7,258 nucleotides of DNA, taken from NCBI RefSeq assembly GCF_000009605.1, contig NC_002252.1, positions 1-7,258 on the forward strand, in the 5' to 3' direction. Numbering within the stretch: position 1 is the stretch's first letter; each line of letters opens with the position of its first letter. A model generated the notes under the pieces. That model worked only from the letters and a program-made list of their open reading frames with translations, ran no database searches and was not told where the DNA came from. This stretch comes from Buchnera aphidicola str. APS (Acyrthosiphon pisum). Its GTDB lineage: Bacteria; Pseudomonadota; Gammaproteobacteria; Enterobacterales; Enterobacteriaceae. Below are positions 1-7,258 of the stretch, piece after piece. The translations under genes were made by a program, and so were the position numbers.

Positions 1-6
1 ATTTTT

Positions 7-1566
7 TTGATTGAAAAGAGACGTAAATTAATACAAAAAAAGGCTAATTATCACTCTGATCCTACAACAGTTTTTAATCATCTTTGTGGATCAAGACCCG
101 CAACATTATTACTGGAAACAGCAGAAGTTAATAAAAAAAATAATTTAGAAAGTATAATGATTGTCGATAGCGCGATACGCGTCTCTGCTGTCAAGAATTC
201 AGTTAAGATTACTGCGCTCTCTGAAAACGGAGCAGAGATATTATCTATTTTAAAAGAAAACCCTCATAAAAAAATAAAATTTTTTGAAAAAAACAAAAGT
301 ATCAACTTGATCTTTCCCTCTTTAGACAACAATCTTGATGAAGATAAAAAAATTTTTTCTTTATCAGTATTTGATTCTTTCAGATTCATTATGAAATCTG
401 TTAACAACACAAAAAGAACAAGTAAAGCAATGTTTTTTGGCGGATTGTTTTCTTATGATCTTATTTCTAATTTTGAATCGTTGCCGAATGTAAAGAAAAA
501 ACAAAAATGCCCGGATTTTTGTTTTTATTTAGCAGAAACATTACTTGTTGTAGATCATCAAAAAAAAACATGTTTGATTCAAAGCAGTTTATTTGGCAGA
601 AATGTAGATGAAAAAAATAGAATTAAAAAAAGAACAGAAGAAATAGAAAAGAAACTGGAAGAAAAATTGACATCCATTCCTAAAAATAAGACAACTGTAC
701 CAGTTCAATTGACTTCCAATATAAGTGATTTTCAATATTCATCTACAATAAAAAAATTACAAAAATTAATTCAAAAAGGTGAAATTTTCCAAGTCGTGCC
801 CTCTCGAAAGTTTTTTTTGCCTTGTGACAATTCATTATCAGCATATCAAGAATTAAAAAAAAGCAATCCCAGTCCCTATATGTTTTTTATGCAAGATGAA
901 GATTTCATACTATTCGGTGCATCTCCAGAAAGTTCTTTAAAATATGATGAAAAAAATAGACAAATTGAGCTCTATCCTATTGCTGGAACCAGACCCAGAG
1001 GTAGAAAAAAAGACGGAACTTTAGATCTCGATTTAGACAGCAGAATAGAACTTGAAATGAGAACTAATCATAAAGAACTTGCTGAACATTTGATGCTGGT
1101 TGACTTAGCAAGAAATGATCTTGCACGTATTTGTGAGCCGGGATCTAGATATGTTTCCGATCTAGTTAAGGTGGATAAATATTCGCACGTGATGCATTTG
1201 GTTTCTAAAGTAGTGGGGCAATTAAAATATGGTTTAGATGCGCTTCACGCATATTCCTCTTGTATGAATATGGGGACATTAACTGGTGCACCCAAAGTTC
1301 GAGCGATGCAATTAATTGCTGAATATGAAGGGGAAGGGAGAGGAAGTTACGGCGGCGCTATAGGTTATTTTACTGATTTAGGAAATTTAGATACTTGCAT
1401 CACAATACGTTCAGCTTATGTGGAATCAGGTGTCGCAACAATTCAAGCAGGAGCCGGTGTTGTTTTTAATTCAATACCTGAAGACGAAGTGAAAGAGAGT
1501 TTAAACAAGGCGCAAGCTGTAATAAATGCTATAAAAAAAGCACATTTTACAATGGGATCCTCTTAA
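7..1566 (+). CDS. trpE: Anthranilate synthase component I (TrpE), intact copy, 519 aa, TTG start
   Basis: The translation aligns along its full length with my recollection of enterobacterial TrpE. Shared motifs include [130 protein letters not shown] and DTCITIRSA. The first canonical in-frame start after the upstream stop is TTG at 7..9. Confidence 0.95.
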   Translation: MIEKRRKLIQKKANYHSDPTTVFNHLCGSRPATLLLETAEVNKKNNLESIMIVDSAIRVSAVKNSVKITALSENGAEILSILKENPHKKIKFFEKNKSINLIFPSLDNNLDEDKKIFSLSVFDSFRFIMKSVNNTKRTSKAMFFGGLFSYDLISNFESLPNVKKKQKCPDFCFYLAETLLVVDHQKKTCLIQSSLFGRNVDEKNRIKKRTEEIEKKLEEKLTSIPKNKTTVPVQLTSNISDFQYSSTIKKLQKLIQKGEIFQVVPSRKFFLPCDNSLSAYQELKKSNPSPYMFFMQDEDFILFGASPESSLKYDEKNRQIELYPIAGTRPRGRKKDGTLDLDLDSRIELEMRTNHKELAEHLMLVDLARNDLARICEPGSRYVSDLVKVDKYSHVMHLVSKVVGQLKYGLDALHAYSSCMNMGTLTGAPKVRAMQLIAEYEGEGRGSYGGAIGYFTDLGNLDTCITIRSAYVESGVATIQAGAGVVFNSIPEDEVKESLNKAQAVINAIKKAHFTMGSS

Positions 1567-1568
1567 GA

Positions 1569-2171
1569 ATGGCAAATATTTTACTGTTAGACAACATAGA
1601 CTCATTCACCTATAATTTAGTTGAACAACTGAGAAATCAAAAAAACAATGTTTTAGTTTATCGTAATACAGTGAGTATTGATATTATTTTCAATTCCCTT
1701 AAAAAATTAACACATCCGATTTTAATGCTGTCGCCCGGACCTAGTTTGCCGAAACACGCAGGATGCATGTTAGATTTAATAAAAAAAGTCAAGGGGGACA
1801 TTCCTATAGTAGGAATTTGTTTAGGTCATCAAGCAATAGTAGAAGCGTATGGCGGCATTATCGGATATGCAGGTGAAATATTCCATGGCAAAGCATCATT
1901 AATCCGCCATGATGGTTTAGAGATGTTTGAGGGTGTACCGCAACCACTACCTGTTGCTCGATACCATTCCTTAATTTGCAACAAAATTCCGGAGAAATTT
2001 GTCATTAATTCCTATTTTGAAAAAATGATTATGTCTGTAAGAAACAATTGTGATCGTGTTTGCGGCTTTCAATTTCATCCTGAATCTATTTTAACAACAC
2101 ATGGAGACCAAATATTAGAAAAAATTATTCATTGGGCGTCTTTAAAATATATCACAAACAAGAAACAATAA
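1569..2171 (+). CDS. trpG: Anthranilate synthase component II, stand-alone class-I glutamine amidotransferase (TrpG, not fused to TrpD), 200 aa
   Basis: It has the GATase triad signatures: nucleophile Cys in GICLGHQ and His/Glu in FQFHPES. It has the typical LLLDNIDSFTYNL N-terminus. The ATG lies 2 nt after the trpE stop (taagaATG), which suggests translational coupling. At 200 aa there is no phosphoribosyltransferase domain. Confidence 0.95.
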   Translation: MANILLLDNIDSFTYNLVEQLRNQKNNVLVYRNTVSIDIIFNSLKKLTHPILMLSPGPSLPKHAGCMLDLIKKVKGDIPIVGICLGHQAIVEAYGGIIGYAGEIFHGKASLIRHDGLEMFEGVPQPLPVARYHSLICNKIPEKFVINSYFEKMIMSVRNNCDRVCGFQFHPESILTTHGDQILEKIIHWASLKYITNKKQ

Positions 2172-2182
2172 AAAAAAAGATT

Positions 2183-2205
2183 CTACTCAAACGAGTCGTT
2201 TTTTT
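2183..2205 (+). terminator. Weak putative rho-independent terminator after trpG (copy 1)
   Basis: An imperfect hairpin c-t-ACTC (2183..2188) / loop aaac / GAGT-c-g (2193..2198) is followed by T7 (2199..2205) and preceded by A9 (2170..2178). The stem is short (5 pairs, 1 mismatch). Confidence 0.3.
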
Positions 2206-3156
2206 AAATTCCATATCCCTTTTTATAACACTGAATCCTCCTGCGTCATCGCATTACACAATTCAACATCCAGACGTGCCTGAAAACAAAAACATACAAC
2301 AATGATTCTCATGCAATTGGAATGACAAAATCAAATATACACAATGAAAATTTTTTAATAAAACCCGTACCGAAATTATTGAAAAGAAGTTTTAAAACAG
2401 TGTTAATGTTCCCAAAAACAGGAGGAAAAATCACAAAAAATACATTAGAAAAAATAGAAAGTATGAAAAAGAGAAAATTATTCAAGGAAAGGTGGGTGTA
2501 ATTTTTACTTCATACAAACCACAACAAGAATTGATTAAAACTGGTCATCGAGGTGAATACAGATATCAAATTAAATGAAAGAATTGGTCGAAATCTGTGA
2601 CTGTCAATACTGGAATGTATCTCAGAAAATAAGTCAAACTTTATCACGATGGGTATTTTTTCATTAATAGAGATTATCAAACCGACATAAAAAAAGGGGG
2701 AGCGATTTTAAGTACTATGTCACTTTTGTATGCATGAGTCTAAATGACTCGACTTTAAATCGGTCTTGTCAGCCTCATAAGCACGCTGTATGTGTGTAAA
2801 TTTGTGCTCCATTAGAAAGAAAATACATTTGGTAAAGGGGAGGAGAAGACTAGCGGTGACTGTCGGATCCAAGAGCATCATCAATCTTCTTATAGATCGC
2901 TCTTCTATCAGTTTTCTAAAAAGCAGTTCTCAAAATTTAAGTGAACTCCCTGTCTGAAAAATATATGAGTCCCGGAAAACGCACTTCAATCACCAATAAA
3001 AGATAATTCATGATTCTGAGACAGATGAAAACAAAAGTTGGACAAACAATGATAGAGATAAAATATCTCCATATAAAAATTTTATAAAATGAACTGTTGT
3101 CAGTCATACAAAACAATTCAATAAAAAGGAAAAAATGAAAATTTTTTTCTAAAAAG

Positions 3157-3165
3157 TTATCCACA
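3157..3165 (+). promoter_or_regulatory. Perfect DnaA box TTATCCACA (unit 1)
   Basis: There is an exact 9/9 match to the enterobacterial consensus TTATCCACA at 3157..3165. Two one-mismatch boxes in the opposite orientation lie 120-150 bp downstream: TGTTGATAA at 3282..3290 and TGGGGATAA at 3305..3313. Confidence 0.6.
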
Positions 3166-3580
3166 GTTTCTGTCTACAAGTGAATTTTAAAAAATATGAA
3201 ATTTTAAGATAAATTCCAAAACAAAATACTCTAACATTATGTTTTTTATAAAAAAATTTTTTTTTTAATTCATACAATACATGTTGATAACATGTTCATA
3301 AGTCTGGGGATAAGTTTTGTATATATATACAAGACACTTTCCGATACATAGGAATCTTACGCGGAAAAAAGAAAAACATTAAAAACAATAAATTAATTAA
3401 GATTAGCATTCTTTAAAAATCCTTTTAAAAGAAAAAAACAAATACATGTATTATATATAAGGTTTTTAATTGTTATTGTTGTTTTGTATTATACTATTAA
3501 TTAGTATCACTTTATTTAACATATTTATTAAATACTTAAATATATATTATACATTTTTTGTAAAATCAAAAATGATATTA

Positions 3581-3609
3581 TTGCTTTAATTTAAAAAGTT
3601 AGTTATTAT
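3581..3609 (+). promoter_or_regulatory. Candidate sigma70 promoter for trpEG copy 2 (-35 TTGCTT, 17-nt spacer, -10 TATTAT)
   Basis: TTGCTT lies at 3581..3586 and TATTAT at 3604..3609 with a 17-nt spacer, about 25 nt upstream of the TTG start. Matches of this kind are frequent by chance in DNA this AT-rich. Confidence 0.25.
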
Positions 3610-3634
3610 AAAACGAAAATTAGATGAAATTTTT

Positions 3635-5196
3635 TTGATTGAAAAGAGACGTAAATTAATACAAAAAAAGGCTAATTATCACTCTGATCCTACAACAGTT
3701 TTTAATCATCTTTGTGGATCAAGACCCGCAACATTATTACTGGAAACAGCAGAAGTTAATAAAAAAAATAATTTAGAAAGTATAATGATTGTCGATAGCG
3801 CGATACGCGTCTCTGCTGTCAAGAATTCAGTTAAGATTACTGCGCTCTCTGAAAACGGAGCAGAGATATTATCTATTTTAAAAGAAAACCCTCATAAAAA
3901 AATAAAATTTTTTGAAAAAAACAAAAGTATCAACTTGATCTTTCCCTCTTTAGACAACAATCTTGATGAAGATAAAAAAATTTTTTCTTTATCAGTATTT
4001 GATTCTTTCAGATTCATTATGAAATCTGTTAACAACACAAAAAGAACAAGTAAAGCAATGTTTTTTGGCGGATTGTTTTCTTATGATCTTATTTCTAATT
4101 TTGAATCGTTGCCGAATGTAAAGAAAAAACAAAAATGCCCGGATTTTTGTTTTTATTTAGCAGAAACATTACTTGTTGTAGATCATCAAAAAAAAACATG
4201 TTTGATTCAAAGCAGTTTATTTGGCAGAAATGTAGATGAAAAAAATAGAATTAAAAAAAGAACAGAAGAAATAGAAAAGAAACTGGAAGAAAAATTGACA
4301 TCCATTCCTAAAAATAAGACAACTGTACCAGTTCAATTGACTTCCAATATAAGTGATTTTCAATATTCATCTACAATAAAAAAATTACAAAAATTAATTC
4401 AAAAAGGTGAAATTTTCCAAGTCGTGCCCTCTCGAAAGTTTTTTTTGCCTTGTGACAATTCATTATCAGCATATCAAGAATTAAAAAAAAGCAATCCCAG
4501 TCCCTATGTGTTTTTTATGCAAGATGAAGATTTCATACTATTCGGTGCATCTCCAGAAAGTTCTTTAAAATATGATGAAAAAAATAGACAAATTGAGCTC
4601 TATCCTATTGCTGGAACCAGACCCAGAGGTAGAAAAAAAGACGGAACTTTAGATCTCGATTTAGACAGCAGAATAGAACTTGAAATGAGAACTAATCATA
4701 AAGAACTTGCTGAACATTTGATGCTGGTTGACTTAGCAAGAAATGATCTTGCACGTATTTGTGAGCCGGGATCTAGATATGTTTCCGATCTAGTTAAGGT
4801 GGATAAATATTCGCACGTGATGCATTTGGTTTCTAAAGTAGTGGGGCAATTAAAATATGGTTTAGATGCGCTTCACGCATATTCCTCTTGTATGAATATG
4901 GGGACATTAACTGGTGCACCCAAAGTTCGAGCGATGCAATTAATTGCTGAATATGAAGGGGAAGGGAGAGGAAGTTACGGCGGCGCTATAGGTTATTTTA
5001 CTGATTTAGGAAATTTAGATACTTGCATCACAATACGTTCAGCTTATGTGGAATCAGGTGTCGCAACAATTCAAGCAGGAGCCGGTGTTGTTTTTAATTC
5101 ACAATACCTGAAGACGAAGTGAAAGAGAGTTTAAACAAGGCGCAAGCTGTAATAAATGCTATAAAAAAAGCACATTTTACAATGGGATCCTCTTAA
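3635..5196 (+). pseudogene. trpE: Second trpE copy disrupted by a 2-bp (CA) insertion. The open frame runs 3635..5122 (495 aa: 489 native residues, then QYLKTK and a stop). The remnant of the native 3' end runs to 5196.
   Basis: Copy 1 reads aattcaatacctg at 1468..1480. Copy 2 reads aattcacaatacctg, with the extra CA at about 5102..5103. The frame shifts after Ser489 and TGA follows at 5120..5122. The remaining 74 nt are identical to the copy 1 3' end but out of frame. Copy 2 also carries A880->G4508 (Met292Val). Confidence 0.8.
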
Positions 5197-5198
5197 GA

Positions 5199-5801
5199 AT
5201 GGCAAATATTTTACTGTTAGACAACATAGACTCATTCACCTATAATTTAGTTGAACAACTGAGAAATCAAAAAAACAATGTTTTAGTTTATCGTAATACA
5301 GTGAGTATTGATATTATTTTCAATTCCCTTAAAAAATTAACACATCCGATTTTAATGCTGTCGCCCGGACCTAGTTTGCCGAAACACGCAGGATGCATGT
5401 TAGATTTAATAAAAAAAGTCAAGGGGGACATTCCTATAGTAGGAATTTGTTTAGGTCATCAAGCAATAGTAGAAGCGTATGGCGGCATTATCGGATATGC
5501 AGGTGAAATATTCCATGGCAAAGCATCATTAATCCGCCATGATGGTTTAGAGATGTTTGAGGGTGTACCGCAACCACTACCTGTTGCTCGATACCATTCC
5601 TTAATTTGCAACAAAATTCCGGAGAAATTTGTCATTAATTCCTATTTTGAAAAAATGATTATGTCTGTAAGAAACAATTGTGATCGTGTTTGCGGCTTTC
5701 AATTTCATCCTGAATCTATTTTAACAACACATGGAGACCAAATATTAGAAAAAATTATTCATTGGGCGTCTTTAAAATATATCACAAACAAGAAACAATA
5801 A
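5199..5801 (+). CDS. trpG: Anthranilate synthase component II (TrpG), second copy, protein identical to copy 1
   Basis: The 200-aa translation is identical to 1569..2171. The ORF is intact, but the upstream trpE now terminates 76 nt before this ATG. Confidence 0.9.
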   Translation: MANILLLDNIDSFTYNLVEQLRNQKNNVLVYRNTVSIDIIFNSLKKLTHPILMLSPGPSLPKHAGCMLDLIKKVKGDIPIVGICLGHQAIVEAYGGIIGYAGEIFHGKASLIRHDGLEMFEGVPQPLPVARYHSLICNKIPEKFVINSYFEKMIMSVRNNCDRVCGFQFHPESILTTHGDQILEKIIHWASLKYITNKKQ

Positions 5802-5813
5802 AAAAAAAAGATT

Positions 5814-5836
5814 CTACTCAAACGAGTCGTTTTTTT
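5814..5836 (+). terminator. Weak putative rho-independent terminator after trpG (copy 2)
   Basis: The same hairpin plus T7 (5830..5836) as in copy 1. The preceding A run is A10 here. Confidence 0.3.
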
Positions 5837-6787
5837 AAATTCCATATCCCTTTTTATAACACTGAATCCTCCTGCGTCATCGCATTACACAATTCAACAT
5901 CCAGACGTGCCTGAAAACAAAAACATACAACAATGATTCTCATGCAATTGGAATGACAAAATCAAATATACACAATGAAAATTTTTTAATAAAACCGTAC
6001 CCGAAATTATTGAAAAGAAGTTTTAAAACAGTGTTAATGTTCCCAAAAACAGGAGGAAAAATCACAAAAAATACATTAGAAAAAATAGAAAGTATGAAAA
6101 AGAGAAAATTATTCAAGGAAAGGTGGGTGTAATTTTTACTTCATACAAACCACAACAAGAATTGATTAAAACTGGTCATCGAGGTGAATACAGATATCAA
6201 ATTAAATGAAAGAATTGGTCGAAATCTGTGACTGTCAATACAGGAATGTATCTCAGAAAATAAGTCAAACTTTATCACGATGGGTATTTTTTCATTAATA
6301 GAGATTATCAAACCGACATAAAAAAAGGGGGGCGATTTTAAGTACTATGTCACTTTTGTATGCATGAGTCTAAATGACTCGACTTTAAATCGGTCTTGTC
6401 AGCCTCATAAGCACGCTGTATGTGTGTAAATTTGTGCTCCATTAGAAAGAAAATACATTTGGTAAAGGGGAGGAGAAGACTAGCGGTGACTGTCGGATCC
6501 AAGAGCATCATCAATCTTCTTATAGATCGCTCTTCTATCAGTTTTCTAAAAAGCAGTTCTCAAAATTTAAGTGAACTCCCTGTCTGAAAAATATATGAGT
6601 CCCGGAAAACGCACTTCAATCACCAATAAAAGATAATTCATGATTCTGAGACAGATGAAAACAAAAGTTGGACAAACAATGATAGAGATAAAATATCTCC
6701 ATATAAAAATTTTATAAAATGAACTGTTGTCAGTCATACAAAACAATTCAATAAAAAGGAAAAAAATGAAAATTTTTTTCTAAAAAG

Positions 6788-6796
6788 TTATCCACA
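6788..6796 (+). promoter_or_regulatory. Perfect DnaA box TTATCCACA (unit 2)
   Basis: There is an exact 9/9 match at 6788..6796. The one-mismatch boxes are conserved at 6912..6920 and 6935..6943. Confidence 0.6.
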
Positions 6797-7210
6797 GTTT
6801 CTGTCTACAAGTGAATTTTAAAAAATATGAAATTTTAAGATAAATTCCAAAACAAAATACTCTAACATTATGTTTTTTATAAAAAAATTTTTTTTTAATT
6901 CATACAATACATGTTGATAACATGTTCATAAGTCTGGGGATAAGTTTTGTATATATATACAAGACACTTTCCGATACATAGGAATCTTACGCGGAAAAAA
7001 GAAAAACATTAAAAACAATAAATTAATTAAGATTAGCATTCTTTAAAAATCCTTTTAAAAGAAAAAAACAAATACATGTATTATATATAAGGTTTTTAAT
7101 TGTTATTGTTGTTTTGTATTATACTATTAATTAGTATCACTTTATTTAACATATTTATTAAATACTTAAATATATATTATACATTTTTTGTAAAATCAAA
7201 AATGATATTA

Positions 7211-7239
7211 TTGCTTTAATTTAAAAAGTTAGTTATTAT
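7211..7239 (+). promoter_or_regulatory. Same candidate promoter. It would drive trpE copy 1 (start at 7) across the circular junction.
   Basis: The sequence is identical to 3581..3609. It makes sense only if the molecule is circular or further tandem units follow. Confidence 0.25.
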
Positions 7240-7258
7240 AAAACGAAAATTAGATGAA

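Follow-up and report, generated by a model that had tools for sequence, protein, structure and literature searches.

A CA duplication and frameshift mark the second trpE copy on plasmid pTrp of Buchnera aphidicola APS as a probable young pseudogene

INTRODUCTION

Tandem trpEG units on Buchnera plasmids are known to accumulate disabled copies. In a passage that cites the papers on Diuraphis noxia and Uroleucon sonchi, Manzano-Marin describes a tendency of the collapsed tandem trpEG units of Aphidinae to include pseudogenised variants (PMC7245037). Silenced trpEG copies in the symbiont of Diuraphis had been named as a precedent in an earlier reading of the present plasmid, made from its letters alone (the sequence-only reading), and the precedent is real, as the title of Lai, Baumann & Moran (1996) records. 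For the pea aphid symbiont, a 2011 review by the first author of the APS genome paper cites that paper, in the passage concerned, for pseudogenised tandem trpEG copies (PMC3064905). An explicit statement of the APS lesion was not found in the open-access literature searched. The lesion analyzed here is already known in kind, and it is effectively known for the APS plasmid.

Here, we describe the lesion base by base on plasmid pTrp of Buchnera aphidicola APS; the window analyzed is the whole plasmid, 7,258 bp in length. Our main conclusion, to which we give a probability of about 0.78, is that trpE copy 2 is a young pseudogene, disabled by a slippage-type CA duplication with truncation and carrying a second change (M292V), on a plasmid whose two units have their other APS-specific changes in common. 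The lesion itself is not new; this analysis adds the mapping of the lost tail to Mg2+-site glutamates, the M292V substitution, and a comparison with 13 other assemblies.

RESULTS

Organization of the two tandem units

The plasmid is built from two units of 3,628 bp and 3,630 bp (Table 1). In a global alignment, they differ in 10 columns, corresponding to ~8 mutational events, and are 99.7% identical, in agreement with the earlier observation that the rest of the two copies is nearly identical. In each unit, trpE is followed after two bases by trpG and then by ~1.45 kb without a long open reading frame (ORF). The nearest PLSDB entries are pTrp plasmids of other aphid species, at ~80% identity. 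Several features expected of a pTrp array with pseudogene units are found in APS: trpE-trpG repeats arranged head to tail on a plasmid, a putative origin with DnaA boxes in each unit (one perfect box and two with one mismatch), and at least one unit with a predicted inactivating trpE or trpG lesion (the CA frameshift and M292V, both in unit 2).

A pattern scan for DnaA boxes gave 10 matches, compared to 2.7 expected, and the same box has been proposed as the pTrp origin in a passage of a report on another Buchnera (PMC4898801). The remnant of a decayed replication-initiator gene follows each trpG. It was located by tblastn using the intact pTrp proteins of A. kondoi (263 amino acids [aa]) and Sitobion avenae (265 aa) as queries; the source gene is intact on the pTrp plasmids of these two hosts' symbionts and has hundreds of homologues on gammaproteobacterial plasmids. 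Rfam and tRNA scans of the 7,258-bp plasmid gave no matches, and a promoter scan of the plasmid returned fewer sites than were found in shuffled sequences and was uninformative.

Table 1 Features of plasmid pTrp of Buchnera aphidicola APS and the evidence for each
Feature	Position	Strand	Evidence
Plasmid pTrp (trpEG) of the pea aphid symbiont; two head-to-tail 3.6-kb units	1..7258		
Tandem unit 1: trpE-trpG, decayed rep remnant, AT-rich region with DnaA boxes	1..3628	+	Self-alignment
Tandem unit 2: 99.7% identity to unit 1, bearer of private lesions	3629..7258	+	Self-alignment
trpE copy 1, full length, 519 aa from TTG 7	7..1566	+	ORF list, Pfam, structure alignment
5' deletion junction in trpE (ATA CAAAAAAA GG)	33..40, twin 3661-3668	+	Alignment with other assemblies
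trpG copy 1, 200 aa, GATase domain	1569..2171	+	ORF list, Pfam, BAA95418/BAA95419
Decayed plasmid replication-initiator gene remnant, with stops and frameshifts	2282..2744, twin 5913-6450	+	tblastn
Perfect DnaA box TTATCCACA	3157..3165, twin 6788-6796	+	Pattern scan
One-mismatch DnaA boxes	3282-3290 and 3305-3313; twins 6912-6920 and 6935-6943	minus	Pattern scan
trpE copy 2, frameshifted shortened ORF, 495 aa, C-terminus ...NSQYLKTK*	3635..5122	+	ORF list, Pfam
Private A-to-G substitution of unit 2, giving Met292Val in the invariant NPSPYMFFMQD motif	4508..4508	+	Unit alignment
CACA, a CA dinucleotide tandem duplication; single CA at 1472-1473 in unit 1	5100..5103	+	Direct reading, alignment
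Orphaned trpE copy 2 3' end in the original frame; same sequence as unit 1 1474-1566	5104..5196	+	Direct reading, unit alignment
Premature TGA stop from the frameshift	5120..5122	+	Direct reading, ORF list
trpG copy 2, intact, same sequence as copy 1	5199..5801	+	ORF list, alignment

A CA duplication shifts the frame of trpE copy 2

Direct reading of unit 1 gives AAT TCA ATA CCT GAA GAC at positions 1468-1485, while unit 2 reads AAT TCA CAA TAC CTG AAG ACG AAG TGA at 5096-5122. The extra CA can be placed at 5100-5101 or, equally, at 5102-5103 (TTC AAT A.. in unit 1 versus TTC ACA ATA in unit 2). As a result, copy 2 ends in the 6 residues QYLKTK in place of the last 30 residues of TrpE, and the ORFs of the two copies encode 519 and 495 aa. 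The sequence-only reading had already given the tandem duplication of CA, the resulting frameshift, and QYLKTK as the new tail; the ORF list and the alignment of the units reproduce each of them, and the earlier count of residues lost and gained is exact. Since the CA difference is deterministic between two units that are 99.7% identical, chance is not at issue. We infer slippage as the origin of the duplication.

The lost tail carries Mg2+-site glutamates

To place the lost residues, we compared both copies with domain profiles, solved structures, and homologues. Both copies match Pfam PF04715 (Anth_synt_I_N; E = 4e-15) followed by PF00425 (Chorismate_bind), the latter with E-values of 3e-77 for copy 1 and 6e-73 for copy 2. 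The Chorismate_bind profile is covered at 257 of 257 positions by copy 1 versus 246 of 257 by copy 2, which thus falls short of a complete domain. Copy 1 aligned end to end with the TrpE structures of Serratia marcescens and Salmonella (E of ~1e-198). In these alignments to solved TrpE structures, the lost part comprises residues 490-519, which contain ...EADETRNKARAV..., and the stretch missing from copy 2 corresponds to SIPEREADETRNKARAVLRAIATAH; the tail aligned to SIPEREADETRNKARAV in Serratia TrpE (1I7Q) and to SVPQSEADETRNKARAV in Salmonella TrpE (1I1Q).

Conservation was scored over 123 sequences, namely, copy 1 and 122 homologues 60-99% identical. Six residues of the tail, E494, E497, K501, A502, V505, and I509, are invariant (123/123 each). 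N500 is found in 120/123, and N500, A504, A508, and H513 stand at 98% among the homologues. These invariant residues, the structure alignments, and the incomplete Pfam coverage of copy 2 together support the earlier proposal that a conserved C-terminal helix is among the residues lost.

A 76-residue C-terminal query matched the distant homologue MbtI without gaps over query residues 2-60, pairing TrpE 445-503 with MbtI 382-440. This alignment places E494 on MbtI Glu431 and E497 on MbtI Glu434. In MbtI-Mg2+ crystal structures, the catalytic Mg2+ is bound directly by Glu434 and via a water by Glu431 (PMC8008425), and the conserved Mg2+ site is strictly required across the MST synthase family (PMC7617670). 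Our assignment of Mg2+ ligands in TrpE comes from the MbtI paper taken together with the alignment. We take the equivalent glutamates of Serratia TrpE to be Mg2+ binders as well. The E-x-x-E Mg2+-site glutamates and the N-K-A motif are all present in copy 1 and absent from copy 2. Since the tail is lost together with E494 and E497, the copy 2 protein is predicted to lack half of the metal site and a core helix. These comparisons argue strongly that the copy 2 product would be without anthranilate synthase activity.

A second change at an invariant site of copy 2

The only other difference between the two trpE copies is A880 in unit 1 versus G4508 in unit 2, which replaces Met292 with valine. 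Met292 is present in all 123 homologues scored; copy 1 has Met, and copy 2 reads PYVFF and so departs from the invariant motif. Both coding differences of copy 2 therefore hit invariant positions, while the trpG copies are identical. Two hits on invariant sites are as expected if copy 2 has been freed from selection.

We considered whether copy 2 might be functional in spite of the frameshift, either because ribosomal or transcriptional slippage bypasses it or because a 25-residue peptide re-initiated at GTG 5119 complements the shortened protein. The GTG at 5119-5121 lies in the original trpE frame and overlaps the new TGA at 5120-5122 as gTGa, a geometry known to permit termination-reinitiation, and slippage rescue of frameshifts is invoked for Buchnera genes in a passage of PMC7245037. 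However, the stretch from the insertion to the stop (CAA TAC CTG AAG ACG AAG TGA) contains neither a homopolymer nor a slippery X XXY YYZ motif, and an altered length of the nearby T5 run yields TAA. A peptide begun at 5119 would itself be without E494, and the replacement of the invariant Met292 by valine points to relaxed selection and not to retained function. With these points taken together, a functional copy 2 is hardly plausible.

A programmed frameshift or recoding site was examined as a separate candidate and rejected: positions 5090-5122 contain no slippery heptamer or long homopolymer, and there was no Rfam match.

The CA duplication is private to unit 2

We aligned both APS units with 13 independent one-unit assemblies (1 JGI metagenome contig, 1 ENA contig, and 11 Logan contigs) of pea-aphid-type plasmids, 99.3-99.7% identical, for a total of 15 units. 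A survey of other lines for the CA insertion had been suggested by the sequence-only reading; the insertion is present in 0/13 assemblies and is thus private to unit 2 among the 15 units. G4508 is likewise found in 0/13. An exact-pattern scan of genome contigs for either allele of the CA site gave no match, and the same scan of metagenome contigs gave one matching contig, which carries the unduplicated CA allele.

Seven APS-private states (six substitutions and one 5' deletion) are common to both APS units and occur in 0/13 of the others, while four events are private to unit 2 and two to unit 1. Because they share these APS-private states, the APS units are each other's closest relatives. By this distribution, the array would have been re-amplified from one unit, or would be undergoing homogenisation, since APS split from the other lines, with the CA duplication arising later. 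Both of the alternatives put forward earlier, a very recent lesion and homogenisation of the array, fit the seven shared private states and the restriction of the CA to unit 2, and this pattern makes no choice between them.

Deposition record and the possibility of an artefact

GenBank identifiers for the plasmid are consecutive and comprise one TrpE (BAA95417.1, which is UniProt Q44695, 521 aa) and two TrpG (BAA95418.1 and BAA95419.1). One TrpE identifier against two for TrpG means that the second trpE was given no product by the depositors, who evidently already treated it as a pseudogene in 2000. Exact-protein look-ups in public collections found no copy 2 product, whether its start was set at TTG (495 aa), at ATT (497 aa), or at the internal ATG (445 aa), nor did they find APS-type full-length 519-aa or 469-aa products. 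The deposited 521-aa BAA95417.1 is present in the cluster collection and absent from the contig index. Unrelated snake-toxin entries in the TrpE cluster listing were set aside as a database indexing quirk.

The absence of the CA from all 13 other assemblies, and from the sole matching metagenome contig, would also be seen if the CA were missing from the aphid's Buchnera and had entered the record as a sequencing, cloning, or assembly artefact in a near-identical repeat with few errors. No second assembly or set of reads of the APS haplotype was found to confirm the 2000 Sanger record, and of the ~8 differences between the units, at least 5 are shifts in homopolymers or in C/G runs, of the kind typical for Sanger compressions. 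The CA itself is of another kind, since a dinucleotide insertion outside a homopolymer is an atypical base-calling error. Moreover, unit 2 bears the private substitutions A4508G and T6242A. These are impossible as compressions and indicate that unit 2 had been told apart from unit 1 as a separate molecule or segment. The depositors, for their part, took the lesion as real, with no second TrpE identifier and both TrpG genes annotated, and the first author's later review, in the passage noted above, cites the APS paper for pseudogenised copies (PMC3064905). We therefore consider an artefact unlikely and retain the reading of copy 2 as a genuine young pseudogene.

Polymorphism at the trpE start

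A separate set of differences lies at the 5' end of trpE. The canonical ATG plus 10 codons (MQKSPYEIEI) are missing from trpE of both APS units. This site reads ATG CAA/GAA AAA AGC CC. TAT GA. ATT GAA ATA ATT CAA AAA AAG (M[Q/E]KSPYEIEIIQKK) in 7/13 assemblies, in GenBank AAD09346.1, and in A. kondoi, while the APS units read ATA CAA AAA AAG. The copy 1 ORF is complete in its body and 3' end, and its only possible starts are TTG 7, ATT 1, and ATA 31. The depositors' TrpE (BAA95417.1, 521 aa) begins at ATT 1; the TTG starts lie at 7 and 3635.

Other lesions of the start occur in the compared assemblies. In 5/13, the ATG has become ATA and is accompanied by a 2-bp AC insertion and a C-to-G change, and the only TrpE called there begins at an internal ATG (469 aa). 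In one further assembly (L010; 1/13), CAA is changed to TAA at trpE codon 2. TrpE products of 469 aa were found on ~7 contigs, compared to ~7 contigs with intact forms.

Removal of the 32 bp that separate two CAAAAAAA repeats in the ATA+AC haplotype yields the APS start region. The net change is -30, and it returns trpE to the frame of both the former start position, now ATA, and the upstream TTG. The 32-bp deletion in APS looks like a frame-restoring event. Units with start lesions may be majority pseudogenes that mask a minority intact unit, or they may be genes with unusual starts. This 5'-end polymorphism is the part of the data most worth population-level follow-up.

DISCUSSION

We propose that slippage duplicated a CA inside trpE of unit 2 and thereby shifted the frame 30 codons before the natural end of the gene. 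Translation would then proceed through six wrong codons and stop at TGA 5120-5122. The shortened protein, without the helix that bears the second pair of Mg2+-site glutamates and N-K-A and with Met292Val in addition, would make no anthranilate. The lesions of unit 2 would have arisen after the two units descended from one unit, or were homogenised, in the APS lineage.

The frameshift may also affect the gene downstream. The trpG ATG lies 2 nucleotides (nt) past the trpE stop in unit 1 and 76 nt past the last translated trpE codon in unit 2. Since ribosomes would end 76 nt before trpG-2, any translational coupling would disappear, and trpG-2 may be produced with lower efficiency. For the array as a whole, we infer that no more than one trpE in each pair of units is usable, and hence that no more than one anthranilate-synthase operon works per pair. 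Even the one working copy is presumed, because copy 1 has no canonical start codon. The ratio of dead to live units may also differ from that in the record, through a mixture of plasmids or arrays of more than two units. With two trpG genes and at most one usable trpE, the gene-copy number of pTrp would overstate its enzyme-coding capacity, a consideration relevant to reports that tryptophan production does not correlate with trpEG amplification.

Could the dead copy be maintained by selection, to lower the dosage of anthranilate synthase or to preserve additional TrpG or the length of the plasmid? Disabled trpE units are recurrent in the Buchnera of Diuraphis and Uroleucon; there are three other independent lesions at the trpE start in pea-aphid lines; and tryptophan output is reported, in passages of two papers, not to track trpEG amplification (PMC3064905, PMC3229713). 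However, redundant copies decaying neutrally under the strong drift typical of Buchnera would produce the same pattern, and only one strain has the CA lesion. The present data fit drift as readily as selection. We regard selected down-tuning as very unlikely.

A wider interpretation is offered only as a speculation that we ourselves think improbable. In pea-aphid Buchnera, the dosage of anthranilate synthase could be subject to a continuing mutational tuning that is partly reversible, with the CA frameshift as only one of its layers. The basis for this idea is the finding of two further independent disabling start haplotypes among the 13 other assemblies. If it were true, slippage at short repeats would be switching array units off, and occasionally back on, and aphid lineages would differ in their ratio of live to dead units. 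Much of the pea-aphid trpEG array may be silent, to judge by the lack of a canonical start codon in both APS copies and by the different start-region lesions in roughly half the remaining assemblies.

As a discovery, the pseudogene carries little weight: a dead trpE is ordinary, and the presence of pseudogenised trpEG repeats on Buchnera plasmids is textbook knowledge. The sequence-only reading had missed the effective prior annotation of the lesion, as well as M292V in copy 2 and the lack of a canonical ATG in copy 1.

At the level of the enzyme, the closest systems are the TrpE proteins of Serratia and Salmonella (1I7Q and 1I1Q) and the wider MST family (MbtI, Irp9, PabB, EntC, and MenF). 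Copy 1 has the same pair of domains and the same E-x-x-E...N-K-A arrangement, whereas copy 2 has lost this motif along with the final 11 positions of the chorismate-binding profile. At the level of the plasmid, the molecule is the one reported by Shigenobu et al. (2000, Nature 407:81; BAA95417-BAA95419), and the lesion itself is not new. In Uroleucon sonchi, as in APS, extra trpE copies are decaying on the pTrp of a Macrosiphini symbiont; the account of Baumann et al. (1997) describes trpE remnants only, whereas APS copy 2 is almost full length. The array of Diuraphis noxia, to judge from the title of Lai, Baumann & Moran (1996), resembles that of APS in having a disabled trpE beside an apparently usable unit on a plasmid-borne trpEG array of an Aphididae symbiont. 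In contrast to Diuraphis noxia, the APS record holds one dead and one full-length unit only, and its pseudogene appears very young: its 1.5 kb carry two lesions, the adjoining trpG is intact, and the units are 99.7% identical. The pseudogene units of Diuraphis are reportedly both more numerous and more decayed than that of APS.

Start region of trpE

The canonical ATG and first 10 codons (MQKSPYEIEI) are missing from trpE of both units (window positions 1-45 and 3629-3673). A. kondoi, GenBank AAD09346.1, and 7 of the other pea-aphid-type assemblies have both the ATG and these codons. At the trpE start, the window sequence reads ATA CAAAAAAAGG. It equals the ATA+AC haplotype of other lines (ATG → ATA plus a 2-bp AC insertion) once 32 bp flanked by two CAAAAAAA repeats are taken out of the latter, a difference that restores the trpE frame. 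The depositors' TrpE protein (BAA95417.1) begins at ATT, position 1; the first in-frame standard start for the trpE copies is TTG, at 7 and 3635.

Five independent pea-aphid-type assemblies (L006, L007, L008, L009, and L011), in which trpE was read as a collapsed consensus, carry the ATG → ATA change, the AC insertion, and a C → G change at the trpE 5′ end. As a result of these changes, TrpE is called from an internal ATG only (469 aa), and the 469-aa protein is present on ~7 contigs. The lesion in a further one-unit assembly, L010, differs: trpE codon 2 is changed from CAA to TAA. With the APS deletion included, three different start-region lesions of trpE thus occur in one species complex. 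These forms may represent majority pseudogene units or, alternatively, genes with unusual initiation.

Differences between the two units

The second private change of trpE copy 2, at position 4508 (880 in copy 1), replaces Met292 with Val in the NPSPYMFFMQD motif; Met292 is invariant in 123 homologues. The remaining differences between the units lie in noncoding DNA and consist of shifted C or G runs and of homopolymers that are one base longer or shorter. Some of these run-length differences may be Sanger compression errors instead of real ones. In database look-ups with the TrpE protein P0001, its 90% cluster contained pea-aphid TrpE proteins and also unrelated Naja weak neurotoxins of 64-86 aa; this mixture appears to stem from how the database is indexed and not from biology.

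Putative origin and replication-initiator remnant

Features of the two units (window positions)
Feature	Unit 1	Unit 2	Strand
trpE 5′ deletion junction	33-40	3661-3668	
rep remnant	~2282-2744	~5913-6450	+
DnaA boxes	3157-3165, 3282-3290, 3305-3313	6788-6796, 6912-6920, 6935-6943 (twins)	
Remaining inter-unit differences, paired	2364-2369	5994-6000	
	2696-2701	6326-6331	
Remaining inter-unit differences, single		5800, 6760, 6887	

In each unit, a perfect DnaA box is accompanied by two boxes with a single mismatch, and the three adjoin an 18%-GC stretch (3201-3600). The window holds 10 DnaA-box matches, compared to 2.7 expected. The boxes and the GC-poor stretch likely form a replication origin in each unit.

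The remnant of a plasmid replication-initiator gene, interrupted by stops and frameshifts, retains ~35% identity. Many homologues of this gene are carried by gammaproteobacterial plasmids. Since it is decayed in the window and intact on the pTrp plasmids of A. kondoi (L015:2202-2993, “putative replication initiation protein”) and Sitobion avenae (L016:757-1554), the pea-aphid plasmid has apparently lost the Rep it once encoded.
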